Source: Verrucomicrobiota bacterium
Lineage (GTDB): Bacteria > Verrucomicrobiota > Verrucomicrobiia > Limisphaerales > Palsa-1400
Direction of reading: 5' to 3'
Length of the DNA stretch: 64,000 bases
NCBI GenBank assembly: GCA_049510745.1
Contig: JBEKYR010000002.1
Location: 160,001-224,000 of the forward strand
Of the stretch, positions 1,894 to 21,530 are shown one piece after another. A program made the position numbers and the translations under genes. Position 1 is the stretch's first letter. Each line of letters opens with the position of its first letter. Below the pieces are notes generated by a model. The model did no database searches. It had not been told where the DNA came from and saw nothing but the letters and a program-made list of their open reading frames with translations.

Positions 1894-2196
1894 ATGAAAG
1901 CGTTTGCCGAGATAATTCAATGGGATGACCGCACTCCGCCGGACGAAGAAAGACAGTGTCCGAAGCCGTTTACCTGCCCGCTCAGCCGCGTCCAAGCGGG
2001 GATGGCGGTGCGCATCACGGAGCTTTCCGCTCCGCCGGACGTGACCCGGCGCTTGCGGGAGATTGGGTTTGGCGAACAGCAGGTGATCAAACTGCTGATC
2101 CGTCAATCCAACCTGATTTGCCAGGTGTGCAACGCCCGCCTGGCTCTCAGTTCCCAACTCGCCCAGATGATTATCGTCGAGCCACTGCCGGCTTGA
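1894..2196 (+). CDS. FeoA-family (SH3-like) protein, Cys-rich
   Basis: PLS..(G)...I..L......RRL.EIGF..Q.I......R.ALS..LA..I.V pattern typical of FeoA; ends 15 bp before nuoA. Confidence 0.75.
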   Translation: MKAFAEIIQWDDRTPPDEERQCPKPFTCPLSRVQAGMAVRITELSAPPDVTRRLREIGFGEQQVIKLLIRQSNLICQVCNARLALSSQLAQMIIVEPLPA

Positions 2197-2211
2197 ACGG
2201 ACCAAAACACC

Positions 2212-2583
2212 ATGAAGGTTGGACCTTACTTGTTCCTGGCGGTTTTCGGCCTGGCCGCAATGGTCTTCGCCCTCGCGCCGCTGGCCATCGCCTGGCTGTG
2301 GGCGCGGGCTTTCTCGCCCCGGACGCCCGGCGCGGTCAAAAACGCCATTTACGAGTGCGGCTTGGAATCCAAACCCACCGGCTGGGTGCAGTTCAAATCC
2401 GAATACTATCTCTACGGCATTATCTTTCTCATCTTCGATGTCGAAACGATTTTTTTGCTGCCCTTTGCCGTCGCCTTCAAGGGTCTCTCGTTGGGAGCGT
2501 GTCTGGCGATGTTGATTTTCATCCTCTTGCTGGCCGAAGGGCTTGCCTGGGCCTGGGCCAAGGGGGTATTGGCCTGGAAATGA
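2212..2583 (+). CDS. nuoA: NADH-quinone oxidoreductase subunit A
   Basis: YECG, FLIFDVE, three TM segments, KGVLAW. Confidence 0.95.
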   Translation: MKVGPYLFLAVFGLAAMVFALAPLAIAWLWARAFSPRTPGAVKNAIYECGLESKPTGWVQFKSEYYLYGIIFLIFDVETIFLLPFAVAFKGLSLGACLAMLIFILLLAEGLAWAWAKGVLAWK

Positions 2584-2599
2584 ACGATGAACGGCTCCC

Positions 2600-3193
2600 A
2601 TGAACCAGGAACTTCAAAACAGGTTAAGCCGGCAGGGAGTGGTGCTCACCACGGTGGAGGAGCTTTACAACTGGGGCCGGAAGAATTCCCTGTGGCCGTT
2701 GCAGTTTGGCCTGGCCTGCTGCGCCATCGAGATGATCGCCGCCTCCATGGCGCGCTTTGACATGGCGCGTTTCGGCGCCGAGGTCTTTCGGCCCTCCCCC
2801 CGGCAGGCTGACCTGATGATCGTTTCCGGCACTGTCACCAAAAAAATGGCCCCGCAGGTCGTGCGTCTCTACAACCAGATGCCGGAGCCAAAATACGTCA
2901 TTGCCATGGGCGCGTGCGCCATTTGCGGCGGCCCCTTCCGGGACGGCTACAATGTGCTGCAAGGGATCGACCTTTATCTGCCGGTGGACGTTTATATCCC
3001 CGGTTGCCCGCCCCGGCCCGAAGCGCTGCTGGAGGGCCTGATGACCCTGCAACAAAAAATAGCGCGCCAGCGCCTCCAAGGCCCCGACCGCCCGCGCCAC
3101 CTGGAGGCCGACGCGCCCGGCGAATTTCCCGTTCCGCAATTCGGACCGCATGACCTTGTGGGGCCGCGCTTGCGCACACCCCAGGACACCTGA
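2600..3193 (+). CDS. nuoB: NADH-quinone oxidoreductase subunit B
   Basis: [27 protein letters not shown] (N2 cluster ligands). Confidence 0.96.
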
Positions 3194-3768
3194 TGCAAAC
3201 TCTGGAAGAAATCAAAGACCGCCTCAGCGGCCGCTTCCCGGCCGCCCGCCTGGAGGTCATCCCCAACGGCAGCCCGGCCCGGCAGCCGTCGCTGCTCCTC
3301 GACCACGAATACGCGCGGGAAATCGCCGGGTTTTTGCGCGACGATCCGGCGCTGCGCCTGGATTACGCCTCCAACGTCACGGGCGTGGACTGGCCGGAAA
3401 GGGTTGTCAAAGAGAAAGTCAAGGTCAGGAAGATCATTGACGGCGTGGAGAAGGAAACCGAGGAACTGGTCGCGCGGAAAATCCCGGGATTCCTCGAAGC
3501 CGTCTATCATCTCTATTCCATGGCGCTCGGTCACGGGCCGCTGGTGATCCGGCTGCGCACCGGCAATCGAACCGACCGCGTCGCGCTGCCCTCGCTGACG
3601 CCCATCTGGCGCAGTTGCGAGTTCCAGGAACGGGAGATCTTCGATCTTTTTGGCATCCAATTCCAAGGGCATCCCGATCTGCGCCGCATCCTGATGTGGG
3701 ACGGGTTCGCCGATCATCCCATGCGCAAGGACTATGTGCCGGCCGATCACCAGGAGGCCCGGCCATGA
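3193..3768 (+). CDS. nuoC: NADH-quinone oxidoreductase subunit C
   Basis: [19 protein letters not shown]...HPMRKDY. Confidence 0.93.
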
Positions 3769-4916
3769 TCGCGCCGCCGCCGGAACCTCAGACCCCGGCC
3801 CTCGGTGAGGCCGCCGACCACGATCTCCTCGAAGTGGCGATGGGGCCGCACCACCCCTCCACTCACGGCGTTTTTCGGATGAATGTTGTTCTGGACGGCG
3901 AAAGGGCCGTCAAACTGACGCCGGTATTCGGCTACCTCCATCGCAACCACGAAAAGATCGCGGAGAAGAACAGCTACCTGGCGTCCATCCCCTACACCGA
4001 CCGGCTGGATTACATCTGCTCGATGACCAATAACTGGGCCTATGTCCTGAGCGTGGAGAAGCTGGCCGGGCTGGCCGTGCCGGAGCGCGCCGAATACATT
4101 CGAGTCATCGTCGGCGAACTCACCCGCCTGTTCAACCACGCGTGTCTGGCGGGATTCCTCTTGCAGGACATGGGCGCGTCGGGCACGCCCCTGATGTACG
4201 CCTTTCGCGAGCGGGAAAAAATCCTCGACCTCTTCGAAGCGTTGAGCGGCTCGCGCATGATGTGCAATTACATGCGCTTCGGCGGCTGCCGCTGCGACTT
4301 TCCGCCCGGCTGGCTGGAAGAGGCCGCCAAAGTCGCGGCCGGTTTCGATGCCTTCCTCGACGAGTTCGAGGCGCTTCTGAGCGAGAACGAAATCCTCCGC
4401 GCGCGCTGCGAAGGCGTGGGCGTGCTCCCGCGCGATCTGGCGGTCAACGCCGGCGTCACCGGCCCGGGCTTGCGGGCCAGCGGAGTCAATTACGACATCC
4501 GCAAAGTGGACCAGTATGGAATTTACAGCCGCTTCAAATTCCGCGTGCCGCTCGGCCAGCGGGGGGACGTTTTTGATCGTTACATGGTGCGGATTCTCGA
4601 AATGCGGGAATCCCTCAGGATTCTCGGCCAGGCCCTGCATGACCTTCCCGCCGGAGCGATCCTCGATCCCAAATTCAAACTGCGCAATCTCCGCCCCAAA
4701 CCCGGCGAAGCCTACGGGCGGATCGAAGCGCCCAAAGGCGAATTGGGCTTCTACCTCATCAGCGACGGCGGGCCCGCGCCTTATCGTTACCGGGTCCGTC
4801 CTCCCAGTCTGATCAATCTGACCGTCCTCGAAGATATGTGCCTGGGCCATACGATTGCGGATGTGGTCATTATCCTGGGCAGCATCGACATCGTGCTCGG
4901 GGAGGTGGATCGCTAA
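3765..4916 (+). CDS. nuoD: NADH-quinone oxidoreductase subunit D
   Basis: [21 protein letters not shown]-terminal DIVLGEVDR; no NiFe CxxC motifs; ATGA overlap with nuoC sets the start. Confidence 0.95.
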
Positions 4917-5476
4917 TGCTGGGGCGCGGCATCCTTCGAGGGCTGATCGAGACGGGGCGGAATTTCTGCGGCAGCTATTATGACCCCGCCCGGCTGACCA
5001 CCGTGCAGTACCCGGAGGAGACACTTCCGCCGCTGGAAAACGCGCGCACGATTCCTTTTCTGGTCTATGATGGCAACGATCCTCTCGACGGGTTGCGCTG
5101 CACGGCTTGCACCATTTGCGCGCTGGAATGCCCGGCCCATTGCATCGAAATCGTCAAGGACACCGCAAAAAAACCTGATTACCTGGGCAAAATGCAAATA
5201 CAGCCCAAGGTCTTCGACATCGACATGGCCGTCTGCATGGAGTGCGGCATCTGCGCGGAAGTGTGCCCGTTCGATTCCATCAAAATGGACCGGGTCTTCG
5301 AGTTGGCCGGCGAGGATCGCCGGATGATATTGCACAAGGCGGACCTGGCCAAATCCAACGAGTACTTTCGCGAAATCCATCCCGCCGAAGCCGCCGCTGT
5401 GGATGCCGCGCGCGCCGAAGAACAACGGAAGGCGCAAGCCAAAAAAATCGCCGCCACCGTCCCAACCCCGGCATGA
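4916..5476 (+). CDS. nuoI: NuoI-like 2x[4Fe-4S] subunit
   Basis: TVQYPEE, CTACTICALECP and CMECGICAEVCP; TAATG overlap with nuoD. Confidence 0.92.
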   Translation: MLGRGILRGLIETGRNFCGSYYDPARLTTVQYPEETLPPLENARTIPFLVYDGNDPLDGLRCTACTICALECPAHCIEIVKDTAKKPDYLGKMQIQPKVFDIDMAVCMECGICAEVCPFDSIKMDRVFELAGEDRRMILHKADLAKSNEYFREIHPAEAAAVDAARAEEQRKAQAKKIAATVPTPA

Positions 5477-6663
5477 ACGCCCTGGACCAAATTTTTATTT
5501 CAGTGCAACACGGGCTGGCGGGCCTGGCTCCGGCGTCCATGCGGCCCCTGGTGTTGGCGCTGCTCAACATCGCGGGCCTCATGGCGGCGTTTGGAACCTG
5601 CTTTGCCCTCACCACCATCCTCGAGCGCAAAATCCTGGGCCGGATGCAAAATCGCTTCGGCCCCAATCGCGTCGGGCCTTTCGGTTTGCTGCAGCCGTTG
5701 GCCGACGGCGTCAAGATGCTGATCAAAGAGGACATTGTTCCTTTTTCCGCCGATCATGCGGTGCATTTTCTCGCGCCGCTGGCGCTGACCGTGCCGGTTT
5801 GGCTGGCCTTCGCCGTTTTGCCTTTCGGACGCAACATGAGCGCCGTTGAACTGGACGCCGGGATTCTTTTCTTTTTTGCCATTGGGTCCGCCTCCGAACT
5901 GGCGGTCTTCATGGCGGGATGGTCGAGTCAAAACAAATACTCGCTGGTGGGCGCGATGCGGGCGATCGCGCAAATGATCAGCTACGAAGTTCCGTTGGTG
6001 CTGGCCAGCGTTCCGGTGGTGATGGCGGCCGGTTCGTTGTCATTGCCGGACATTGTCCAGGCCCAATCCGGCTGCGCCCTGGGCTGGGTGCCGCGATGGA
6101 ACGTGTTCACGCCCTGGGGTCTGGCCGGGTTCGCGCTCTTCCTGATCGCCGCCGCCGCCGAATCCAACCGTTGCCCGTTTGACCTGCCGGAAGGGGAATC
6201 CGAGTTGATCGCCGGCTATCTGACCGAGTATTCCGGTTTCAAATACGCTCTGTTTTTCCTCGGAGAATACCTCGGTCTTTTCGCCGTAACCGGCCTGGGC
6301 GTGACCCTGTTTCTGGGAGGATGGCAGGCGCCGGCCAAATGGCTGGAATGGCTGCCGTCCTGGGGCTGGTTCGCCGCAAAATTCAGCGCGTTGATTTTTC
6401 TTTTCATCTGGGTGCGGGCGACCCTGCCGCGATTGCGCCTGGACCAACTGTTGAATTTCGCCTGGAAGCTTCTTGTCCCGCTCGCCCTGATCAACCTGTT
6501 CGTCGCCGGCGCCTGGTTGAAAAGCGGCGCGTGGCATTTTCCCGCGGCGTTGGAAATTCGCTGGCTGCTCTGCGCGGCCCTCCTGGCGGTACCCTATGTC
6601 TGGTTCGGCCGAAGCTGGAAAGGCCCGATGGCCAAAGAACGCCAATATAGTTATGCTGAATGA
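5473..6663 (+). CDS. nuoH: NADH-quinone oxidoreductase subunit H
   Basis: ERK..GRMQNR.GPNRVG, ADGVKMLIKED, SYE, PFDLPEGESEL; ATGA overlap with nuoI. Confidence 0.95.
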   Translation: MNALDQIFISVQHGLAGLAPASMRPLVLALLNIAGLMAAFGTCFALTTILERKILGRMQNRFGPNRVGPFGLLQPLADGVKMLIKEDIVPFSADHAVHFLAPLALTVPVWLAFAVLPFGRNMSAVELDAGILFFFAIGSASELAVFMAGWSSQNKYSLVGAMRAIAQMISYEVPLVLASVPVVMAAGSLSLPDIVQAQSGCALGWVPRWNVFTPWGLAGFALFLIAAAAESNRCPFDLPEGESELIAGYLTEYSGFKYALFFLGEYLGLFAVTGLGVTLFLGGWQAPAKWLEWLPSWGWFAAKFSALIFLFIWVRATLPRLRLDQLLNFAWKLLVPLALINLFVAGAWLKSGAWHFPAALEIRWLLCAALLAVPYVWFGRSWKGPMAKERQYSYAE

Positions 6664-7222
6664 GATCGCATTTTATCTGGCCGCCGGCCTGACCGTGGCC
6701 TTCGCCGTCGCCGCCATGACCCTGCGTCACCTGGTGCATTGCGCCTTGTGCGCCGCCGCCGCTTTTGGCGGTCTGGCCGTGATCTATTTGCAGCTCGACG
6801 CGGAGTTTGTGGGATTTGCCCAACTGCTGGTTTATGTGGGGGCGATCGCCATTCTGATCGTCTTTGCCATCCTGTTGACACGCGGCGATGAAGTCCGCCC
6901 GGGCCGCAGCCAGGCGTCGCCTTCCTGGATGACGGGGGTCGCGGCCGCCGCGCTGGTGCTGGCCGGAATCGCCCTGCCGATTCTCAGCAGCCCCAGTCTG
7001 CAACGCGGCGCCCCACCCGCGGCGGTGGCGCCGGTGAAAAAAATCGGGGAGGAATTGATGACCCGTTACGTCCTGCCGCTGGAGACAGTGGGGGTTCTGT
7101 TGACCGGCGCGTTGCTGGGAGCGGTCGTCATCGCCCTGCGCGAGGAATCCGAAGTCAAACCCCGGACCCGCTCGCCGGCGACACCGCGCGTCGAAACCGG
7201 GGAGGCGATCAACCTGCCATGA
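6653..7222 (+). CDS. nuoJ: NADH-quinone oxidoreductase subunit J
   Basis: [22 protein letters not shown]. Confidence 0.93.
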
Positions 7223-7533
7223 ACACGCCCCTCTCCCATTATCTGATTCTCTCCGCGTTGCTCTTTGGCATCGGTTTCGCGGGCGCGGTCGCCCGTCGCA
7301 GCGCCATCCTTGTGCTGATCGGCATCGAACTGATGCTCAACGCCGCGAACCTGAATTTCATCGCGTTCTGGCGCTACGGCCCCCACGCCGAAGCATTGAC
7401 CGGCGTGCTGTTCGTCCTTTTTTCCATCGCCATCGCGGCCGCCGAGGCGGCGGTGGGCCTGGCGTTGGTCATTGCCATCTACCGTCAACGAAAAACCGCG
7501 CAGGTCGATGCTTTGGATGCGCTCAAAGGTTGA
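7219..7533 (+). CDS. nuoK: NADH-quinone oxidoreductase subunit K
   Basis: [21 protein letters not shown]. Confidence 0.95.
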
Positions 7534-7536
7534 GAC

Positions 7537-9561
7537 ATGGAACCCATCGTCCAATATCTCTGGTTGATTCCGGCGATCCCGCTGGTCATGGCGGGATGGG
7601 GCGCGTTGCTCACGCGCGACCGGCGGCGGCTGGCCGCTTGGCTGGCCATTGGCGGGATGGCTCTTTCCTGGTTGCTCTCCTGCGCCGCGTTTTTGACCAG
7701 CTTGAGCGCGCGTCCCTTCCGCCAGACCTGGAGTTTTCGCTGGTTTGATCTGGCCAATACTTCCGTGCCCCTGGGCTGGGTGCTGGACCCGTTGACCGCC
7801 GTCATGCTGATGATGGTGGCGTTTCTGTCGCTGCTCATTTTCATTTACAGCCTCGGCTACATGGCGCGCGACGACAATTTCACCCGGTTCTTCTGTTTTA
7901 TGTCGCTCTTCGGCGCCGCCATGCTCGGCCTGGTCATCGCCAACAGCCTTCTATTGCTGTTCATTTGCTGGGAACTGGTTGGGTTGTCGTCCTACCTGCT
8001 CATTGGTTTCTGGTATGAAAGACCGGCCGCCGCGGCCGCGGCGAAAAAAGCGTTTATTACCACGCGCATCGGCGACCTCGGACTCCTGCTCGGAATGCTC
8101 TGGCTCTATTCCCAAAGCGGCACGCTGCTCTTTTACGACCACGGCCACGGCTGCCTGGAAGCCTCCTCGCTGGCGCGCCTGGTGGCCGGCACGACCTTGG
8201 GCGGCATGGCTGTCTCGACTGCCATCTCCCTCCTGATTTTTGCCGGCGCCGTTGGCAAATCCGGCCAGGTGCCCTTGCACGTCTGGCTCCCGGACGCGAT
8301 GGAAGGTCCGACGCCGGTCAGCGCGCTCATTCACGCGGCCACCATGGTGGCGGCGGGAGTGTTTCTGGTCGCCCGCATGTATCCGCTGATGAGCGCCGGT
8401 CCTCATCCGGCCGCGCTCCAAGTCGTCACCTGGGTGGGGGCCATCACCGCGGTCTTTGCCGCCGCCATCGCTGTCGCGCAGAACGACATCAAGCGAATCA
8501 TCGCTTATTCCACGATTTCGCAATTGGGTTACATGATGCTGGGGCTGGGAGTGGGCGGGGTGGCCGTCGGCATGTTTCATCTGATTACGCACGCCTTTTT
8601 CAAATCGCTCCTGTTCCTCGGCGCCGGTTCCGTCATTCACGGCTGCAACGGCGAACAGGACATCCGAAAAATGGGTGGCCTGAAAAAACTCATGCCCTGG
8701 ACTTTCGCGACTTACGCCGTCGGCATGATGGCGCTGTGCGGCGTGCCGCTGTTTTTTTCGGGTTTTTGGAGCAAGGACGAAATCCTGCGCGCGGCGTGGG
8801 ATTGGCCCGTTTCCGCGGTCCCGTTTTGTCTCGGCGTGGCCGGCGCGTTTCTGACGGCATTTTATATGACGCGGCAGGTGAGCTGGGTGTTCTTCGGCAA
8901 ACCGGCGGAGGCCGAAGGTTCCCCTGCTCCCGCGCACGAAAGTCCACCGGTGATGACGATCCCGCTGGTCATCCTCGCGGTCTTCGCCGTGCTGGCCGGT
9001 TTTTTGGGAACGCCGGCCTGGCCGTGGTTCCATGCTTTCTTAAATGGAGAAAGCACCCCGTTCGCGCCTGCGGCTCTTGTGGCCCGCCCGCAACTCAATC
9101 TGATGCTGCTTTCCACCCTGGTCGTGGGCACGGCTCTGTTCGTGGGCTGGAAAATCTATTCCAAAGTCGCCGTCCAAAGTTTCCGGGAGACTGATCCGCT
9201 GGAGAAATCTCTGCCGGCTCTCTTTCGATTGCTCCAGAATAAATTCTTCATCGACGAACTTTATGCCGCGACGGTGCTGCGGCTGAACGCGGCCTTTGCG
9301 GCGTGCGCCGACTGGCTGGATCGCGTGATTTGGGCGGGCGCGGTCAACGCGGTTTCGGGGTTGACGGTCGTGTGCGCGCAGATCAACCGCGCCCTTGACG
9401 AATTCGGGGTCAATGCCGGATTCGATTTCGGCTGCGAAGGATTGCGCGGCACGGGAAGTCTCCTGTCGTGGATGCAAAACGGCCGCGTCCAGCGCTATTT
9501 GCGAATCGTGGGCCTGGCGTTCAGTCTTCTGGTGCTGGCCTTGCTCGGGGGGTGCGCATGA
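7537..9561 (+). CDS. nuoL: NADH-quinone oxidoreductase subunit L with lengthened lateral helix
   Basis: WELVGLSSYLLIGFW, GKSGQVPLHVWLPDAMEGPTPVSALIHAATMV, HAFFK, FWSKD. Confidence 0.96.
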   Translation: MEPIVQYLWLIPAIPLVMAGWGALLTRDRRRLAAWLAIGGMALSWLLSCAAFLTSLSARPFRQTWSFRWFDLANTSVPLGWVLDPLTAVMLMMVAFLSLLIFIYSLGYMARDDNFTRFFCFMSLFGAAMLGLVIANSLLLLFICWELVGLSSYLLIGFWYERPAAAAAAKKAFITTRIGDLGLLLGMLWLYSQSGTLLFYDHGHGCLEASSLARLVAGTTLGGMAVSTAISLLIFAGAVGKSGQVPLHVWLPDAMEGPTPVSALIHAATMVAAGVFLVARMYPLMSAGPHPAALQVVTWVGAITAVFAAAIAVAQNDIKRIIAYSTISQLGYMMLGLGVGGVAVGMFHLITHAFFKSLLFLGAGSVIHGCNGEQDIRKMGGLKKLMPWTFATYAVGMMALCGVPLFFSGFWSKDEILRAAWDWPVSAVPFCLGVAGAFLTAFYMTRQVSWVFFGKPAEAEGSPAPAHESPPVMTIPLVILAVFAVLAGFLGTPAWPWFHAFLNGESTPFAPAALVARPQLNLMLLSTLVVGTALFVGWKIYSKVAVQSFRETDPLEKSLPALFRLLQNKFFIDELYAATVLRLNAAFAACADWLDRVIWAGAVNAVSGLTVVCAQINRALDEFGVNAGFDFGCEGLRGTGSLLSWMQNGRVQRYLRIVGLAFSLLVLALLGGCA

Positions 9562-11108
9562 AAACGTTTCCCCTCCTCACTCTTCTGACTCTGATCCCGC
9601 TGATCGGCGGCGCGGCGACGTTGCTGGCATCCAGTCAATCAAAGCTCGCCCGGCGCGTCGCCTTCCTCACCAGCCTGCTGGCGCTGGCCGTGGCGGCGCT
9701 GCTGTGGGCCGCGTTTGACACCGGCCGCGCCGGCTGGCAATTCGTCGAGCGTTTCGCCTGGGTGCCGTCGCTGGGCATCGATTACCACCTGGGCATCGAT
9801 GGATTGGGGCTTTTGATGGTGCTGCTGTCGGCGTTGCTCGTTCCGTTTGCCATGCTCGCTTCGTGGAACATCGGGCAGAATCCGAAACTTTATTTCGCGC
9901 TGATTCTGTTTTTGGAAGCCGGCTTGTTCGGCACGTTCACTGCGCTGAACTTTTTCCATTGGTTCATCTATTGGGAACTGGGCCTGATTCCGGCGTATTT
10001 CCTGATCAAAATCTGGGGCGGCCCCCGCCGCACGCGGGCGGCGAACCAATTCTTCATTTACACGCTGGCCGGCAGCGTGGCGATGCTCCTGGCGTTCCTG
10101 GCCCTTTACGCCGCGACGGGACTGTTCGACTTCGGACAACTGGCCGAACTGGCCCGCAACGGCGGCCTCGACAACGCGCTGTTCGCCAAGCTGGGCGGTT
10201 CCTTTTTCAAGTCCAGGGAAACGCTGGCCACGGTCATTTTTCTGGGCGTGTTCCTCGGGTTTGCGGTGAAGGCGCCGCTCATGCCTTTCCATACCTGGCT
10301 GCCCTCCGCTTACGCCGAAGCGCCCACCGGCACGGCCATGCTGCTGACGGGTGCGATGTCGAAAATGGGCGTCTATGGATTCCTGCGCATTTTGCTGCCG
10401 CTGTTTCCGGCGCAAATGCGCGCCCTGCAAACGCCTCTGCTCTGTCTGGCGGTGGCCACGATTGTTTTTTCGGCGGCGGCGGCCCTGGCCCAGCGCGATT
10501 TGAAACGGATGGTGGCTTATTCCTCGATCAATCACGTCGGTTACTGCCTCCTGGGAATTTTTGCCGCGGTGCAGATCACCGGCACGACCGCTGCCTGGAC
10601 CACTGAAAAGGCCGCCGCCCTCAACGGCGTCATGCTGCAAATGTTCAACCACGGGTTGACGGCCGCGGCGCTGTTTTATTTTGTCGGCCTGATCGAGCAG
10701 CGCAGTGGCGGCCTGCGCGGCCTGGACGATTTTGGCGGCCTGCGCAAAGCAGCGCCGGTTTTTTGCGGGTTGATGGGCATCACTTTGTTCGCCTCGCTCG
10801 GTCTGCCCGGCCTGAATGGATTTGTCAGCGAGTTTCTGATCTTCAAAGGTTCCCTGCCGCTGGTGGGGTGGGCGGCGGCGGTCTCGACCCTCGGTTTGCT
10901 GATCACGGCGATTTTTCTGCTCGCCATTTTGCAGCGCGTGTTCAGCGGGCCTTTGCAGAATCGCTGGGCCGGCTGGAAGGACCTGACGACCGGTGAACGG
11001 CTCACGGTGGCGCCGGTCATCGCGCTGATGCTTTTGCTCGGAATATGCCCGCAAATTCTTATCAGCGTGGCCAACCCGGCCGCTCTGGCGATCTTGAAAC
11101 TCTTTTGA
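9558..11108 (+). CDS. nuoM: NADH-quinone oxidoreductase subunit M, copy 1
   Basis: FIYWE..LIP.YFLI..WG, KAPLMPFHTWLP, AYSSINHVG, LPGLNGFVSE; ATGA overlap with nuoL. Confidence 0.93.
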   Translation: MKTFPLLTLLTLIPLIGGAATLLASSQSKLARRVAFLTSLLALAVAALLWAAFDTGRAGWQFVERFAWVPSLGIDYHLGIDGLGLLMVLLSALLVPFAMLASWNIGQNPKLYFALILFLEAGLFGTFTALNFFHWFIYWELGLIPAYFLIKIWGGPRRTRAANQFFIYTLAGSVAMLLAFLALYAATGLFDFGQLAELARNGGLDNALFAKLGGSFFKSRETLATVIFLGVFLGFAVKAPLMPFHTWLPSAYAEAPTGTAMLLTGAMSKMGVYGFLRILLPLFPAQMRALQTPLLCLAVATIVFSAAAALAQRDLKRMVAYSSINHVGYCLLGIFAAVQITGTTAAWTTEKAAALNGVMLQMFNHGLTAAALFYFVGLIEQRSGGLRGLDDFGGLRKAAPVFCGLMGITLFASLGLPGLNGFVSEFLIFKGSLPLVGWAAAVSTLGLLITAIFLLAILQRVFSGPLQNRWAGWKDLTTGERLTVAPVIALMLLLGICPQILISVANPAALAILKLF

Positions 11109-11111
11109 GTT

Positions 11112-12599
11112 ATGCTGGCCTGGACCATTTACATTTCATTTTTGGGCGCGGCGGCGCTGGCGCTTCTGCCGCCGGAGAGCCGGCGCGCGGCGCGGATCAC
11201 GGCGCTGCTGACGGCTTTGGCGGGGCTGGCCGTCGCGCTGGGCGGCGCGGCGCAGTACGAGCGCCAGACCCCGTCCGGCGCGCTGGTGGACCTGGCCAAT
11301 GTTTCGTGGATTGCGGACCTGGGCATCCGCTATCACCTGGCGGCGGACGGCGTGAGCATCACGCTGGTGTTGCTGACCGGCATTGCGGCGGTCGCGGGCG
11401 TGTTGTTTTCGTGGAACATCGAGCGCCGCGTCCGGGAGTTTTTCGCGCTCTATCTGGCGCTCATCGGCGGCGTCTATGGAGTGTTTCTGAGCTTCGATCT
11501 GTTTCTCCTGTTCGTCTTTTACGAAATCGCCATCATCCCGAAATACTTCCTCATTGCCGTCTGGGGATCGACCCGGCGCGAATACGGCGCGATGAAACTG
11601 GCGCTCTATTCGTTGGTGGGCAGCGCGATGGTGTTGATCGGCTTGATCGCCGCCTACGTCGTCTCCGGGGCGCAGACGTTCGATTTGATCGAACTGGCGA
11701 AATTTCCGTTCCCGGTCGCGTTTCAAAACTGGGCTTTCCTGCTGGTGTTTGTTGGCTTTGCGATCCTGGCTGGTCTTTGGCCGTTCCACACTTGGGCGCC
11801 GACCGGCCACGTCGCCGCGCCCACCGCCGCCTCCATGTTGCTGGCCGGGGTGGTGATGAAACTGGGCGCTTACGGCGCGTTGCGCGTGGCCATGACGCTT
11901 TTCCCGGACGGACTGCGCACCTGGCAAAATGAGATCGCCCTGCTGGCTGTCATCGGCATCGTCTATGGCGCCACGGTCGCGCTGGTGCAACGGGACATCA
12001 AATTCGTCATCGGCTATTCCAGCGTCAGCCACATGGGCTTTGTCTTGCTCGGCCTGATGACCCTTTCTCAAATCGGCCTGAGCGGCGCCGTGCTGCAAAT
12101 GTTTTCCCACGGCATTATCGCCGGACTTCTCTTTGCGGTGGTGGGGCGGATGATTTACGACCGCACCCATACCCGTGAACTGAGCGAACTTCAGCCGATG
12201 AATCTCAGCGTGCTGGCGCCCTTTGCGGCGGTCACCTTTGTGGTCGCGGGCGCCGCGTCCATGGGTCTGCCCGGTTTCAGCGGGTTTATCGCTGAATTGC
12301 AGGTGCTCACGGGCGCCTGGCAGGTCTTTCCGCGCCTGACTATTCTCGCCGGCGTCGGAATTCTTGTCGGCATCGCCTTCATCGTGCGCGTCTGGATCAA
12401 GGCTTTTTTTGCGGAGAACGACACGCAAGCCGCCGCCATCCAGATCGAACCCATTTCCATTCCCGAACGGGCTGGCGCGTATGTGCTGCTGGCAACCACC
12501 GTCCTCATCGGCCTTTGGCCCGGTTTGCTCCTGGATTTGATTACGCCGACGCTCCAATCGCCCCTGTTCCAACCGCTCTGGAAAGGAGGCCCGCCATGA
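11112..12599 (+). CDS. nuoM: NADH-quinone oxidoreductase subunit M, copy 2
   Basis: FVFYE..IIPKYFLI..WG, PFHTWAP.GH, YSSVSHMG, GLPGFSGFIAE. Confidence 0.92.
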   Translation: MLAWTIYISFLGAAALALLPPESRRAARITALLTALAGLAVALGGAAQYERQTPSGALVDLANVSWIADLGIRYHLAADGVSITLVLLTGIAAVAGVLFSWNIERRVREFFALYLALIGGVYGVFLSFDLFLLFVFYEIAIIPKYFLIAVWGSTRREYGAMKLALYSLVGSAMVLIGLIAAYVVSGAQTFDLIELAKFPFPVAFQNWAFLLVFVGFAILAGLWPFHTWAPTGHVAAPTAASMLLAGVVMKLGAYGALRVAMTLFPDGLRTWQNEIALLAVIGIVYGATVALVQRDIKFVIGYSSVSHMGFVLLGLMTLSQIGLSGAVLQMFSHGIIAGLLFAVVGRMIYDRTHTRELSELQPMNLSVLAPFAAVTFVVAGAASMGLPGFSGFIAELQVLTGAWQVFPRLTILAGVGILVGIAFIVRVWIKAFFAENDTQAAAIQIEPISIPERAGAYVLLATTVLIGLWPGLLLDLITPTLQSPLFQPLWKGGPP

Positions 12600-14083
12600 A
12601 CCCGTCTTTGGACTGGATGATTCCGCTGATTCCCGAAGAAATCATCATCGGGTTCGCGCTGGCAGTGCTGGCGCTGGATTTTGCCATCGTGCGGCGGAAA
12701 AATCTGGCCGTCCGCGCGGCAGTGATTGGCACGACGGCTTGTTTGGGTTGCGTGGCGGCCATGATCTGGATCGCGCGCGGGCCGGATGCCGGGGCGGCCG
12801 AAATGCTGGCGCTGACTCCGCTCACCCAGTTTTTAAAATTGGTGCTGCTCGCCTTGACCCTGGTGGTCGCGCTGCTGTCGTTTGGCGCGCGTTTTTCGCG
12901 GCACGTCGGCGAGTATTTTGCGCTGCTGCTCATGGCCACCGCCGGTTTGATGCTGCTCATCAGTTCGGAAAATCTTTTGATGATTTTTATCGCGCTCGAA
13001 CTGCTCAGCGTCCCGCTTTATGTCCTGACGGCCTTTAACAAGAGCAGTCCGGCGTCGGCCGAGGCGGCCCTGAAATACTTTCTCTTCGGCAGCGTGGCGG
13101 CGGCGTTCACGCTCTTTGGCATCAGCCTCCTCTATGGGCTGGCCGGCGATCTGCAACTCGCATCGCTGGCCGAAAAACTGAGAACTCAGCCGGTCGAGCC
13201 GGTTTGTTATGCCGCCCTGGTCATGACTCTGACCGGCTTCGCCTTCAAAGTGGCGGCGGCGCCGTTTCATTTCTGGGCGCCGGATGTCTATCAGGGCGCG
13301 CCGGCGCCGATCGCCTGTTTCATCGCTTCCGGCTCAAAGGTGGCCAGCTTCTTTGTCCTGGCACGAATCATCGTCGAGGGCTTTGGCCCGTGGCACGGCA
13401 GCGCCGTCTGGGAAGGGTTTCGGGCGGGATGGATGCCGCTGCTGGCGGTGTTGGCGGTGTTCTCGATGGTCGCGGGCAACATGGCCGCGCTCGTGCAGAC
13501 CAGCGTGAAACGGTTGCTCGCCTATTCGGCCATCGCCCACGCGGGCTATGCGTTGCTGGCCTTTTTTGGCAACGCGCAGCAGATGCTGCCGGCGCTCTTC
13601 TTTTATGTCATCACTTACGCGCTGACCGTGCTGGGAGCGTTTGCGGTGGTGGCGGCGGTTGAAAACAGCGGCAGCCGCGATCGGCTGGCCGATTGGGCCG
13701 GGCTGGGCCGGCGCGCGCCTCTGCTCTCCGCGTGCATGTTTGTCTTCATGCTCTCGCTGGCGGGCATTCCGCCGCTCTCCGGTTTCTTCGGCAAGTTCTA
13801 TCTCTTCACGGCGGCGGCGGCGGGCCAGCCTCATTTGGGCATGCTGTGGCTGGTCATCGTGGCGGTGGGCGCCAGCGCGGTTTCGCTCTATTACTATCTG
13901 CAAGTGCTCAAGCAGATTTACGCCGCCGAACCTCCCGCCGGCTCCAAACCCTTTTGCCCGCCCTATGCCGCGCTGCTGCCCATCGCGCTGCTGGCCGGCC
14001 TCGTCATCGCCTTTGGTTGCGCGCCCGGCTGGTTGCTGGGACAACTTTCCATGGTCCTGAACTCTTCCGCTTTCCGATTATGA
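12596..14083 (+). CDS. nuoN: NADH-quinone oxidoreductase subunit N
   Basis: EAALKYF, FKVAAAPFHFWAPDVYQGAP, KRLLAYSAIAHAGY, SLAGIPP..GFFGKF. Confidence 0.95.
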   Translation: MNPSLDWMIPLIPEEIIIGFALAVLALDFAIVRRKNLAVRAAVIGTTACLGCVAAMIWIARGPDAGAAEMLALTPLTQFLKLVLLALTLVVALLSFGARFSRHVGEYFALLLMATAGLMLLISSENLLMIFIALELLSVPLYVLTAFNKSSPASAEAALKYFLFGSVAAAFTLFGISLLYGLAGDLQLASLAEKLRTQPVEPVCYAALVMTLTGFAFKVAAAPFHFWAPDVYQGAPAPIACFIASGSKVASFFVLARIIVEGFGPWHGSAVWEGFRAGWMPLLAVLAVFSMVAGNMAALVQTSVKRLLAYSAIAHAGYALLAFFGNAQQMLPALFFYVITYALTVLGAFAVVAAVENSGSRDRLADWAGLGRRAPLLSACMFVFMLSLAGIPPLSGFFGKFYLFTAAAAGQPHLGMLWLVIVAVGASAVSLYYYLQVLKQIYAAEPPAGSKPFCPPYAALLPIALLAGLVIAFGCAPGWLLGQLSMVLNSSAFRL

Positions 14084-17000
14084 ATGCATCTCCCAAAATC
14101 CAAAGCCCGCCCGCCGCTCCCTTCGTCACGCTGGACGGGAACGAGGCCGCCGCTTCCGTCGCTTACCGCCTGACCGAAACGATCGCCATCTACCCGATTA
14201 CGCCCTCCTCGCCCATGGCCGAATGGTGCGACCAATGGTCGGCGGCGGGCCGGCCTAATTTATACGGCACTGTGCCCCGCCTGGTCGAAATGCAGTCGGA
14301 AGCCGGGGCCGCCGGCGCCCTGCACGGGATGGTGCAAGTCGGCTCGTTGAGCACAACCTTCACCGCCTCGCAGGGCCTGCTGCTGATGATCCCCAGCATG
14401 TACAAAATCGCCGGCGAACTTCTTCCCTTCTGCATGCACGTGACCGCCCGCACCCTGGCCACGCACGCCCTCTCCATTTTTGGCGATCATTCCGATGTCA
14501 TGGCGTGCCGGCAAACCGGCTTTGCCCTGCTTTCCTCCGGTTCGGTGCAGGAGGCGCAGGATTTGGCCTGCATCGGCCATGCCGCCACGCTCGAATCGCG
14601 GGTGCCGTTCCTGCATTTCTTTGACGGTTTCCGCACCTCGCACGAAGTGGCCAAGATTCGCTTGCTGACCGACGACCAATTGCGCCAGATGATGGACCAG
14701 TACGACCTGTGCCTCCAGGCCTTCCGTCATCACGGCCTGTCTCCGGACCGGCCCTGCATTCGCGGCACGGCCCAGAACCCCGACGTTTTCTTTCAGGCGC
14801 GGGAAGCGTGCAATCCTTTTTATGACCGCACGCCCGGCATCGTCCAGGAGGCCATGAACCGCTTCGCCGGGATCACCGGGCGCCAATACCGGTTGTTTGA
14901 TTACGCCGGCCATCCCCAGGCCGAGTGCGTGCTGGTCATCATGGGTTCGGGCGGCGAAACCGCGCAACAAACGGCCGAGTGGCTCCATCAGGGCGGCGAA
15001 AAAACCGGAGTGTTGAGAGTGCGCCTCTATCGGCCATTCTCGATTGAAGCCTTTGTCGGCGCGCTGCCTCCGACCACGCGCCGCCTGGCTGTGCTCGACC
15101 GCACCAAGGAACCGGGCGCGGTCGGGGAACCGCTTTATGTCGATACCGTGGCGGCCTTGCGCGAAGCTTGCGACAGAGGGCTGGCGTCCTTTGACGCCGA
15201 ACCGGCCGTGGTGGGCGGGCGTTACGGCCTCTCTTCCAAGGAATTCACGCCGGCGATGGTCAAATCTATTTTCGATGAACTCCGGCAAAAGCGCGCGCCG
15301 AAGAATCATTTTACGACCGGCATTGTCGATGATGTCACCCACACGTCGCTGCCCTTTGACGCGGAGTTTGACATCGAGCCGCCAGAGGTGGTGCGGGCGG
15401 TCTTTTTCGGACTGGGCGCGGACGGCACCATCGGCGCCAACAAGAACTCCATCAAGATCATCGGCGAGGAAACCGACCTCCATGCGCAGGGTTATTTCGT
15501 CTATGACTCCAAAAAAGCCGGCGCCGTCACCATCTCGCATCTGCGCTTCGGGCCGCATCCCATCCATTCCCCCTATCTGCTCAAGGAGGCGGACTTTGTC
15601 GCCTGCCATCAATGGCCGTTTTTGGACCGTTACAACGTGCTCGATTACGCGAAGGAGGGCGCGACGCTGCTGCTCAATTCGCCGCACGGCCCGGAGTCTG
15701 TCTGGAACCATTTTTCCGTCGAGATTCAGCGGGAAATCATCGCCAAGAAACTCAAATGCTACGTGATCGACGCCTACCCGGTGGCCAAGGCCGCCGGCAT
15801 GGGCGGGCGCATCAATACGATCATGCAGACGTGCTTCTTCGCCATTTCCAACGTGCTCTCGCGCGCCGAGGCGATTGAGCAGATCAAGAAGGCGATCCGC
15901 AAAACTTACGCCCGCAAAGGCGAGGCGGTCGTGGCCCAAAACTTCGCGGCGGTGGACCAAACCCTGGCCGCCTTGCACGAGGTCGTCATTCCCGAAGCCG
16001 TTTCCGCCGAACGCCATCAGGCGCCGATGGTTCCGGCGGAGGCGCCTGATTTTGTGCGGCGGATCACCGCGCTCATGCTGGCCAACAAGGGCGATTTGCT
16101 GCCCGTCAGCGCGTTTCCGGTGGATGGCACGTGGCCTTCCGGGACCACGCGCTGGGAAAAACGGGCCATTGCGCTGGAAATTCCCGAATGGGACCCGGCC
16201 ATTTGCATTCAGTGCAACAAATGCGTCCTGGTTTGCCCGCACGCCGCCATCCGGGCCAAGTTTTATCCCGCCGGCCTGGCCGCCAACGCCCCGGCCCATT
16301 TCAAATCCACCGCCTTTCGCTCGCAGGAATGGAAGGACTCCAAATACACGCTGCAAGTGGCGCCGGAAGATTGCACCGGCTGCACGCTGTGCGTGGCGGT
16401 TTGCCCGGTGAAATCAAAAACCGACCCGAAACAAAGAGCGATCAACATGCGGCCGATGCCCCCGTTGCGCGACCAGGAGGTTGTCAACTATGAATTCTTC
16501 CTCAAGCTGCCTTCCCCCGACCGCGCGCGCCTGGCGCTGGACGTCAAAGGGACGCAATTCCGGGAGCCGCTCTTCGAGTATTCGGGGGCGTGTTCGGGCT
16601 GCGGCGAAACGCCCTATCTCAAACTGCTCACCCAGATGTCGGGCGACCGGCTGATCGTGGCCAACGCCACCGGCTGCTCCTCCATTTACGGCGGCAACCT
16701 GCCGACGACTCCTTACACCGTCAACAGCGCCCATCGCGGCCCGGCTTGGTCCAATTCGCTCTTCGAGGACAACGCCGAGTATGGTTTTGGCCACCGGGTG
16801 GCGCTGGACAAACAAACTGAATTCGCCCGCGAACTGGCGCGGAAACTGGCGCCGCAACTGGGCGGGGAACTGGTCGATGAATTGCTCGGCGCCAAACAAG
16901 ATGACGAAGCGCAGATCTTCGCGCAACGCGAGCGGGTGTGCGAATTGCGCCGGCGCCTGCAAGGCTTGGACGCGCCGGAAGCCGCCGTCCTGCACGGCCT

Positions 17001-17694
17001 GGCGGACGCGCTGGTCAGCAAATCGGTCTGGATTGTGGGCGGCGACGGCTGGGCCTATGACATCGGTTTCGGCGGCCTGGACCATGTCATCGCCATGAAC
17101 GCGAAGGTCAACATTCTTGTGCTTGACACTGAGGTTTATTCCAACACCGGCGGGCAACAGTCCAAGGCGACGCCCCGGGGGGCGGCCGCCCGGTTCGCCG
17201 TTTCCGGCAAACGCATGGGCCGCAAGGACCTTGGGCTGATGGCCATGACTTACGGCACGGCCTACGTGGCCCAGATCGCGCTCGGCTCGAAGGACTCGCA
17301 AACGGTGAAAGCCTTCGAGGAAGCCGAGTCGTATCCCGGCACCTCGCTCATCATCGCCTACAGTCCGTGCATCGAGCATGGATACGCGCTTGGGCTGAGC
17401 CTGGAGCAGCAGAAACTGGCGGTCGATACCGGCTTCTGGCCGCTCTACCGGTTCGATCCGCGGCGCCTGGCGGCGGGCCAGCCGGGATTGAAACTGGATT
17501 CCGCGGCGCCCAAGATTCCGCTGGAAAAATTCTGGGCGACGGAACGCCGTTTCCAAGCCATCGCCAGCCAGGACCCGGCGCAGAGCAAAGCGATACTTGA
17601 CGCAGCGCAGGACGAGGTCCTGGGCCGGTTCGCCCTTTACGAAAGGATGTCCACCCAGCCGGTGGCGCCGGCCAAGCTTGTGCAGGCGAAGTGA
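14080..17694 (+). CDS. nifJ: Pyruvate:ferredoxin/flavodoxin oxidoreductase (single-chain type, ~1204 aa)
   Basis: YPITP, EMQSE, GLGADG, two CxxCxxCxxxCP clusters, GACSGCGE, GGDGWAYDIG TPP motif; ATG 14080 overlaps the nuoN stop (ATGA). Confidence 0.96.
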   Translation: MNASPKIQSPPAAPFVTLDGNEAAASVAYRLTETIAIYPITPSSPMAEWCDQWSAAGRPNLYGTVPRLVEMQSEAGAAGALHGMVQVGSLSTTFTASQGLLLMIPSMYKIAGELLPFCMHVTARTLATHALSIFGDHSDVMACRQTGFALLSSGSVQEAQDLACIGHAATLESRVPFLHFFDGFRTSHEVAKIRLLTDDQLRQMMDQYDLCLQAFRHHGLSPDRPCIRGTAQNPDVFFQAREACNPFYDRTPGIVQEAMNRFAGITGRQYRLFDYAGHPQAECVLVIMGSGGETAQQTAEWLHQGGEKTGVLRVRLYRPFSIEAFVGALPPTTRRLAVLDRTKEPGAVGEPLYVDTVAALREACDRGLASFDAEPAVVGGRYGLSSKEFTPAMVKSIFDELRQKRAPKNHFTTGIVDDVTHTSLPFDAEFDIEPPEVVRAVFFGLGADGTIGANKNSIKIIGEETDLHAQGYFVYDSKKAGAVTISHLRFGPHPIHSPYLLKEADFVACHQWPFLDRYNVLDYAKEGATLLLNSPHGPESVWNHFSVEIQREIIAKKLKCYVIDAYPVAKAAGMGGRINTIMQTCFFAISNVLSRAEAIEQIKKAIRKTYARKGEAVVAQNFAAVDQTLAALHEVVIPEAVSAERHQAPMVPAEAPDFVRRITALMLANKGDLLPVSAFPVDGTWPSGTTRWEKRAIALEIPEWDPAICIQCNKCVLVCPHAAIRAKFYPAGLAANAPAHFKSTAFRSQEWKDSKYTLQVAPEDCTGCTLCVAVCPVKSKTDPKQRAINMRPMPPLRDQEVVNYEFFLKLPSPDRARLALDVKGTQFREPLFEYSGACSGCGETPYLKLLTQMSGDRLIVANATGCSSIYGGNLPTTPYTVNSAHRGPAWSNSLFEDNAEYGFGHRVALDKQTEFARELARKLAPQLGGELVDELLGAKQDDEAQIFAQRERVCELRRRLQGLDAPEAAVLHGLADALVSKSVWIVGGDGWAYDIGFGGLDHVIAMNAKVNILVLDTEVYSNTGGQQSKATPRGAAARFAVSGKRMGRKDLGLMAMTYGTAYVAQIALGSKDSQTVKAFEEAESYPGTSLIIAYSPCIEHGYALGLSLEQQKLAVDTGFWPLYRFDPRRLAAGQPGLKLDSAAPKIPLEKFWATERRFQAIASQDPAQSKAILDAAQDEVLGRFALYERMSTQPVAPAKLVQAK

Positions 17695-19116: not shown

Positions 19117-21530
<2,414 letters not shown>

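Follow-up and report, generated by a model that had tools for sequence, protein, structure and literature searches.

A 64,000-nucleotide stretch from a Verrucomicrobiota bacterium (Verrucomicrobiia; Limisphaerales; Palsa-1400), comprising positions 160,001 to 224,000 of contig JBEKYR010000002.1 in assembly GCA_049510745.1 and referred to here as the window, carries an operon for a complex I that lacks the NADH module (N-module) and, as its last gene, a pyruvate:ferredoxin oxidoreductase (PFOR). The operon consists of 14 co-oriented, intact open reading frames (ORFs) on the plus strand between positions 1894 and 17694, in the order feoA-like, nuoA-B-C-D-I-H-J-K-L-M1-M2-N and PFOR, with intergenic gaps of +16 to −11 bp. 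Genes nuoD, nuoI and nuoH follow one another with no nuoE, nuoF or nuoG in between, and none of these three was detected in the operon with Pfam and NCBIfam profiles, nor did any locus of the nuoN–PFOR junction survey presented below have a match to them. Every gene assignment was backed by both profile collections, which confirmed the tight operon with nuoI ahead of nuoH that the original prediction had drawn from the nucleotide sequence. The source genome is termed G000 and its contigs Cn; other Gnnn and Lnnn denote comparison genomes and loci, respectively, and "family" and "order" are those of G000.

The feoA-like gene is followed by nuoA (2212–2583; PF00507), nuoB (2600–3193; PF01058, TIGR01957), in whose sequence the tandem cysteines of cluster N2 are present, nuoC (3193–3768; PF00329), nuoD (3765–4916; PF00346, and NF004739 above its cut-off) and nuoI (4916–5476), encoding a 2×[4Fe-4S] protein. 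Downstream lie nuoH (5473–6663; PF00146, and NF004741 above its cut-off), nuoJ (6653–7222; PF00499), whose ATG at 6653 results in an 11-bp overlap with nuoH, nuoK (7219–7533; PF00420), nuoL (7537–9561), nuoM1 (9558–11108), nuoM2 (11112–12599) and nuoN (12596–14083; TIGR01770 above its cut-off). The last gene (14080–17694) encodes a NifJ-type single-chain pyruvate:ferredoxin/flavodoxin oxidoreductase of 1204 amino acids (aa), which matched TIGR02176 over its full length with 1716 bits (cut-off 911) and contains POR_N, POR, Fer4 (2×[4Fe-4S]) and TPP domains. Both its length and its domain set are standard, no extra docking domain being detected with Pfam and NCBIfam. As had been noted originally, the PFOR ATG, at 14080, overlaps the nuoN stop codon by 4 bp (ATGA). 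The nuo and PFOR genes are presumably co-transcribed; a sigma-70 and terminator scan yielded nothing convincing at the nuoN–PFOR junction, and terminator-like matches, which were in excess (40 vs. 23), fell mostly within T-rich membrane genes. The GC content of the operon resembles that of its surroundings.

Subunit features and the 2M assignment

The 2M type of complex I was reportedly defined by Chadwick, Hemp, Fischer and Orphan in 2018 (ISME J 12:2668), a work known to us via papers that cite it. Two of these name a second NuoM and a lengthened NuoL helix as its hallmarks (PMC9040806, PMC6606698; here and below, statements on papers given by PMC identifier refer to the parts of them that were available). 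NuoM1 and NuoM2 matched TIGR01972 with 485 and 450 bits, respectively (cut-off 264) and, at only 33% identity to one another, do not constitute a recent tandem copy. The lateral helix of NuoL is 26 residues longer than that of NdhF1, its best match among solved structures (6HUM), in a split alignment to 6hum_F; the helix segment spans 70 residues, a length found exactly in 64 of 72 homologues, compared with 43 in the canonical NuoL of G000. On these sequence traits the complex is a member of the known 2M type, without an N-module and by prediction quinone-reducing, as the original prediction had proposed from the doubled nuoM. In a FastTree phylogeny of NuoL-M1-M2, outside which the published 2M clade references lie, the operon grouped with those of Verrucomicrobiota and Acidobacteriaceae.

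NuoD carries the HPSTHG and RLDY motifs, with the quinone-site His and Tyr, and an alignment with the HycE-like large subunit of the group-4 hydrogenase encoded on C33 of G000 revealed that both CxxC pairs of the latter are lacking; one vestigial Cys stands just after RLDY. The claim that quinone-site residues are kept and NiFe ligands absent is thereby borne out, and by the CxxC criterion the complex is not a group 4 [NiFe] energy-converting hydrogenase.

The charged axis is complete in NuoL, NuoN and NuoM1, the last of which has the full set of charged residues in transmembrane helices (TM) 5, 7, 8 and 12, while NuoM2 is the exception at TM7. Here, Lys is replaced by Leu and a new Lys is found six residues past the TM5 Glu; this combination was observed in 113 of 115 sequences and cross-checked by alignment with the NuoM of E. 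coli and Paracoccus, whereas the TM7 Lys of NuoM1 is kept in all 110 matched sequences. The TM7 Lys of NuoM is an important residue. Since the canonical single NuoM encoded on C15 of G000 also lacks it, and has no replacement Lys of the NuoM2 type, its loss in NuoM2 need not inactivate the subunit.

The loop between the cluster motifs of NuoI is rich in lysines, of which K81, K85 and K86 are each at least 90% conserved in an alignment of 74 sequences, with or without a neighboring PFOR. The canonical NuoI of G000 has a Pro/Gly-rich loop tip in their place. By cysteine numbering, these three residues are the putative positional equivalents of K86, K89 and K91 of NdhI. In the NDH-1 complex, NdhI Lys86, Lys89 and Lys91 touch ferredoxin (PMC7021789). 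The Lys-rich loop is hence a candidate docking site for ferredoxin. Separately, another contig contains a stretch of 24 codons (G000:C10:9274-9345) that matches the beginning of this nuoI at 92% identity.

Linkage to PFOR and other 2-oxoacid:ferredoxin oxidoreductases

A close match to NuoM2 was found in 45 of the 61 genomes of the order, including G000 and one genome (G036) with a single-M operon, while among 150 genomes sampled elsewhere in the phylum a close NuoN was present in only one. The best 80 loci of a GTDB-wide scan belonged, according to record titles, mostly to Verrucomicrobiota and Acidobacteriaceae and displayed the order A-B-C-D-I-H-J-K-L-M-M-N. Thus, both the unusual gene order and the lack of nuoEFG are traits of the clade and not specific to G000.

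To the survey of the nuoN–PFOR junction, 31 family genomes contributed, 21 of them besides G000 being evaluable (nuoN with at least 1.5 kb downstream); flanks of 1.5–8.5 kb were searched with a NifJ query. A PFOR gene followed nuoN within approximately 50 bp in 14 of the 21 and at 2.4 kb in one, and was not found in the remaining six flanks. With G000 included, linkage was recorded in 15 of 22 evaluable genomes and in seven of the nine genera carrying the complex, so the adjacency is not unique to G000. Outside the family, no PFOR followed nuoN in the 15 evaluable of 20 loci from other families, nor in the 65 evaluable of 75 scan loci (the best 80 minus five duplicates of family genomes); the nuoN–PFOR coupling is family-specific. 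Within the family, the early-branching G005 and G007 (rpoB tree) are linked, the unlinked PFORs nest within the linked ones in a quick tree, and in the NuoL-M1-M2 tree all unlinked genomes except G025 fall into one clade, which indicates an ancestral junction with at least two losses. In G005 the operon is split, yet PFOR remained with nuoM2-N, and in G021, G003 and G005 the junction is kept even without feoA upstream. Taken together, the link is selected but not obligatory. As a further observation, genes are frequently inserted between subunit genes or before PFOR in the 2M operons of relatives (L038, L041-L044, L046, L048, L032, L022), including, by eye, PIN-like toxin–antitoxin pairs and a kinase pair.

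Beyond the family, whole-genome positions of NuoM2 and POR_N were joined for 40 of the 75 scan loci, with preference for long contigs. A POR_N gene lay within 25 kb of nuoM2 in 17 of these 40 genomes, compared with 1.1 expected; by record titles, this applied to 15 of 22 acidobacterial genomes and 2 of 18 others. Thirteen such regions with a 2-oxoacid:ferredoxin oxidoreductase (OFOR) neighbor were retrieved and eight inspected. An alpha-beta OFOR is divergent from nuoA at 350–520 bp in L217, L218 and L219; L221, L222 and L225 have a Vor-type delta-alpha-beta/gamma set in the same orientation, a few genes ahead of the operon; and L224 has a NifJ-type PFOR that diverges from nuoA. In G108, from another order, PFOR and a DHOD-like partner converge on nuoN. 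These arrangements are of at least three kinds and sit on separate branches of the tree. In Telmatobacter bradus, a Vor-type enzyme is located approximately 5 kb upstream and a NifJ-type PFOR approximately 11 kb downstream of the 2M operon. An alpha-beta OFOR is also encoded in 57 of the 61 genomes of the order, which means that carriers without a NifJ-type PFOR still have a source of reduced ferredoxin. Two further loci stand out: G236, in which L224 lies on C29, holds two 2M operons, both of them divergent from a 2-oxoacid:ferredoxin oxidoreductase but not from the same one, and in L124:46-3716 (G234) a PFOR and a DHOD-like gene immediately precede nuoI-H-J-K-L-M-M-N, an independent joining of PFOR and 2M genes.

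These results bear on how electrons would enter the complex. Ferredoxin-type entry, as originally proposed, fits with both the OFOR pairing in two phyla and the conserved NuoI lysines. The more specific proposal was that PFOR directly substitutes for NuoEFG, docking on the peripheral arm and passing electrons from its own 2×[4Fe-4S] domain to NuoI in a pyruvate:quinone supercomplex. Translational coupling, which suggests stoichiometric synthesis, and the ancestral state of the junction in the family speak for it. However, PFOR is of standard length and domains, the NuoI loop is the same whether or not a PFOR is adjacent, and the link, which is absent from the evaluable loci outside the family, was also broken at least twice within it without loss of either part. 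Further, the Acidobacteriaceae pair the complex with alpha-beta or Vor-type enzymes, which differ from PFOR in architecture; alpha-beta OFORs are not known to contain a ferredoxin domain. Different architectures beside one complex point to reduced ferredoxin as the common product rather than to a common docking surface and, together with the shared NuoI loop, favor a soluble ferredoxin shuttle. Direct docking therefore appears very improbable, whereas soluble ferredoxin is, with good confidence, the predicted carrier.

The divergent cytochrome arm and other redox genes of the genome

Back to back with the operon is a 25-kb cytochrome–porin cluster, mostly to the left of the window (G000:C2:135868-160442). 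On the minus strand of the window it is represented by hemA (520–1605; glutamyl-tRNA reductase, PF05201 and PF01488), the head of this divergent heme/cytochrome arm and similarly positioned in relatives, and by the 5′ part (1–442) of a gene for an 811-aa nine-heme cytochrome c with nine CxxCH motifs and matches to Cytochrome_C7 and MtrC-like proteins. The cluster encodes two nine-heme cytochromes, a DmsE-like cytochrome, a 708-aa probable β-barrel, a NapC-like protein, DsrO/DsrP-like and NrfC/NrfD-like pairs and an 11-heme cytochrome with a cytochrome b domain, and provides seven of the 14 ORFs of G000 with at least three CxxCH motifs. A multiheme cluster beside hemA–feoA was also present in 16 further family genomes, that is, in all retrieved with enough sequence. 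Barrel, nuoM2 and PFOR lie on one contig within approximately 35 kb in G000, G001, G002, G006, G010, G011, G014, G016 and G028; in 13 genomes of other families with a close barrel and a 2M complex, the two are on different contigs.

The gene for the 708-aa protein follows that of a DmsE/GSU2203-like cytochrome with seven CxxCH motifs, which scores below family cut-offs. The protein had no match in Pfam or NCBIfam and belongs to an Atlas cluster with 10% MtrB_PioB; its model, of approximately 27 strands (pLDDT 53), matched barrels, with TonB receptors ranking first and MtrB (6r2q_B) 49th. The protein is a candidate for the outer-membrane β-barrel of a porin–cytochrome conduit. Two side observations concern the arm. 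At G000:C2:143074-144810 (L194:15077-16810), a DsrP/NrfD-like subunit contains an inserted cyclic-nucleotide-binding domain. In L157:1066-5322 (G006), genes for an 11-heme cytochrome/cytochrome b and a small cytochrome c are inserted, co-oriented, between feoA and nuoA, which places cytochrome genes inside the nuo–PFOR unit of that genome.

The FeoA-like protein (1894–2196, plus strand; PF04023) is 74% identical to a copy beside feoB on C32, and its gene is probably the head gene of the transcript and not that of a subunit; other genes follow it in G003, G005, G010, G012 and G017. A role as an NdhS-like SH3 subunit was considered and rejected, given its close paralogy to the feoB-linked feoA, its absence from non-family 2M loci and its staying with hemA when the nuo genes move. 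In the divergent intergenic region (1606–1893), an alignment of ten loci and the C32 feoA region revealed conserved blocks, which are common to feoA-nuo-PFOR and feoA-PFOR loci. One block displays, by eye, a GG-N10-GC spacing like that of a sigma-54 site in seven of the ten loci and also recurs ahead of the C32 feoA. A Rex-like site in the upstream region was considered but discarded, as it is not conserved across loci and the Rex family was not found in G000. Downstream of the operon, past a DUF4159 gene, a GNAT-like and cyclic-nucleotide-binding protein is encoded (19117–20736), which is not kept beside the operon in relatives.

This region is relevant to the explanation that nuo and PFOR genes are only co-regulated by a shared low-oxygen or iron promoter, with PFOR-reduced ferredoxin going mainly to hydrogenases and the 2M complex using other donors. 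In line with it, the hemA–feoA region precedes PFOR alone in G010, G012 and G017, where PFOR directly follows the feoA position and the nuo block is elsewhere, and other genes in G003 and G005; group-4 hydrogenase clusters are encoded on C33, next to the second PFOR, and on C17. A shared promoter alone is nevertheless improbable in view of the 4-bp overlap, of an ancestral junction that persists where feoA is not upstream, and of other OFOR types having been paired repeatedly with the complex in a second phylum.

The remainder of G000 (completeness 94%) was also inspected. The separate canonical operon for which the original prediction had advised a check is present on C15 as nuoB-C-D-E-F-G-H-I-J-K-L-M-N, with nuoA on C40. 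This operon has inserts of its own (G000:C15:77342-81413), one gene between nuoC and nuoD and two between nuoE and nuoF, one of the latter DNA-methylase-like by eye, and its NuoG is short (583 aa). Further, C29 carries a separate cluster with a NuoEF-like fusion, and C36 encodes an alpha-beta OFOR. Menaquinone genes are those of the futalosine route, with menD below cut-off, and heme-copper oxidases and a 2-oxoacid dehydrogenase E1 alpha are encoded as well; RnfD/NqrB, searched for as a sign of Rnf, was not found in G000. An all-frame motif scan detected one small ferredoxin, on C45, which is acidic (15 D+E, 6 K+R), single-cluster and 76 aa long. With a canonical operon and other redox enzymes in the same genome, the window operon would constitute an additional, specialized entry point. 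As a separate observation (tblastn and eye), G000:C33:27082-43806 comprises the co-oriented second PFOR, a DHOD-like flavoprotein, formate-dehydrogenase-like and AsrAB-like genes and the group-4 [NiFe] hydrogenase, a second link between PFOR and the complex I family within G000.

Because both NADH modules are encoded in G000, the 2M complex could in principle borrow either the canonical NuoEFG or the C29 fusion and work as an NADH:quinone pump. Yet NuoEFG is encoded within a complete operon and the second NuoF-like gene lies in a separate cluster, no locus of the junction survey had an E, F or G match, and the approximately three protons that electron transfer from NADH to menaquinone affords (see below) fit poorly to an extra pump. 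We consider borrowing very improbable.

Energetics, direction of electron flow and biological meaning

Menaquinone has a midpoint potential of −74 mV. Ferredoxin is placed at −420 to −500 mV and NADH at −320 mV (PMC3578206). At 180–150 mV, the computed thermodynamic ceiling is 3.8–5.7 protons from ferredoxin to menaquinone and 2.7–3.3 from NADH to menaquinone. A four-antiporter pump thus suits a ferredoxin donor and would run near equilibrium. The extra proton pumping attributed to 2M complexes (more than four protons per two electrons) is a proposal of the citing papers, and a stoichiometry of five here is tentative, at odds just short of even.

The best reading of these data, genomic throughout, is forward, ferredoxin-shuttled respiration, to which we assign a probability of roughly 0.58. 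The operon would encode a 12-subunit 2M ferredoxin:menaquinone oxidoreductase together with the enzyme making its reductant. At low oxygen, PFOR would convert pyruvate into acetyl-CoA and CO2 and reduce soluble ferredoxin, which would dock at the basic NuoI loop and pass electrons through N6a, N6b and N2 to menaquinone; the larger redox drop (approximately 0.7–0.85 V per two electrons vs. 0.5 V from NADH) would pay for the fourth antiporter subunit. NrfD/DsrP- and NapC-type proteins encoded in the divergent arm would then reoxidize menaquinol, and multiheme cytochromes, probably together with a porin–cytochrome conduit, would deliver the electrons outside the cell, for instance to humic quinones or Fe(III). 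That the acceptor is extracellular is itself a guess that we rate slightly below an even chance. When oxygen is available, the task would pass to pyruvate dehydrogenase and the canonical NADH complex I. The reading draws on translational coupling, family linkage, independent OFOR pairing, the NuoI lysines, the acidic ferredoxin, the menaquinone genes and the conserved arm. A stronger version, in which the locus holds the whole chain from pyruvate to humics or Fe(III), OFOR pairing fixes donor and direction for soil 2M complexes and the TM5/TM7 pair of NuoM2 is rewired, is rather doubtful as a whole.

Several results weigh against forward, ferredoxin-shuttled respiration. PFOR and the nuo block are apart in G010, G012, G017 and G025 with both parts kept, and a NifJ-type PFOR was not found in G004, G022 and G026. 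Such an enzyme is missing from the vicinity of most 2M operons in the order (none in the 15 other-family loci), as is the case for the non-acidobacterial genomes (2 of 18), and the OFOR-paired genomes are kin, so that they represent a handful of events and not seventeen. Across the whole NuoI segment between the clusters, charges balance to zero in both G000 copies, 2M and canonical, which differ only in where the lysines lie; without the TM7 Lys in NuoM2 a fifth proton is not assured; and the porin model is of low confidence. Finally, since transfer from ferredoxin to menaquinone at five protons is near equilibrium, energetics does not fix the direction.

The last point bears on the reverse reaction, a possibility that the original prediction had rightly kept in view. 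Here, proton motive force would be spent to reduce ferredoxin from menaquinol, PFOR would act as pyruvate synthase and the conduit may import electrons, from reduced humics or Fe(II). Conduits of the MtrB/PioB type work in both directions, and Rnf, as another ferredoxin reductant, was not found in G000. Reverse flow is, moreover, the role put forward for the Nitrospira 2M complex (PMC6606698). On the other hand, no sign of autotrophy was detected, although the ATP-citrate-lyase search is uninformative, as it and its control were both without a match; two PFORs and an alpha-beta OFOR call for a ferredoxin sink more than a source; and Verrucomicrobia of humic lakes are portrayed as saccharide degraders (PMC5615132). 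Reverse operation is unlikely, and the net direction is probably forward, from ferredoxin to menaquinone.

The 2M type is known from several studies (PMC6606698, PMC9040806, PMC7117926, PMC8004040, PMC11636273), in the available parts of which it is based on genomes and transcripts, with donor and direction as hypotheses. Its members share with the window complex the second NuoM, the NuoL helix longer by approximately 26 residues, the lack of NuoEF and a canonical complex I alongside. The duplicated-nuoM complex of Acidobacterium capsulatum (Acidobacteriaceae) is cited as 2M in this literature, and the Acidobacteriaceae operons, including that of Telmatobacter bradus, have the same gene order as the window operon. 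The latter, in contrast to the Nitrospira clade-3 operon, has nuoH and no nuoG and, in contrast to the Anaerolinea type, contains nuoBCDI with C and D unfused; its translationally coupled terminal PFOR and the cytochrome–porin cluster opposite it have no counterpart among the 2M operons described in those parts. The 2M type also appears in print under the label "NUO11+M" (PMC4758237); the strict NUO11 definition in the same source, no N-module anywhere in the genome, excludes G000, with nuoEFG on C15 and the second NuoF-like gene on C29.

PFOR and ferredoxin were previously proposed as donors to an 11-subunit complex I that cells require to grow on pyruvate or lactate (PMC11238625), which likewise lacks an N-module and serves anaerobic respiration with menaquinone as acceptor; the available parts mention no second NuoM, and its PFOR link is co-expression rather than one operon. 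Cyanobacterial and plastid NDH-1 (PMC7021789; 6HUM) is also a ferredoxin:quinone complex I, proven as such, with basic NdhI residues that bind ferredoxin, but has three antiporter subunits, a plant-type ferredoxin, plastoquinone and NdhO/S/V, none of which is found in the window operon. For the arm, the closest description is that of verrucomicrobial porin–multiheme clusters (He et al. 2017, PMC5615132), in which a large predicted β-barrel stands beside a periplasmic multiheme cytochrome and which were proposed to serve extracellular electron transfer or humics reduction in anoxic humic water; the likeness is one of description, and the window arm differs in adjoining hemA, quinol oxidases, the 2M complex and PFOR. 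As far as the literature was searched, the defining 2M paper lying outside it, the nuoN–PFOR operon, the convergent OFOR pairing and the joined cytochrome arm are not described and would be new, while the 2M type and the PFOR–ferredoxin–complex I idea are already in print; the defining paper may already note OFOR neighbors or the NuoM2 change.

Gene context in two phyla thus names a testable donor system for 2M complexes, and Telmatobacter bradus is a cultured carrier of a 2M operon with OFOR neighbors. For tests of how coupling works in complex I, the rewired NuoM2 is a variant supplied by nature. Were the island to operate in the way proposed, these Verrucomicrobia would obtain a higher ATP yield from pyruvate at low oxygen and respire humics or iron, which, if true, would have a bearing on carbon turnover in anoxic soils and waters.

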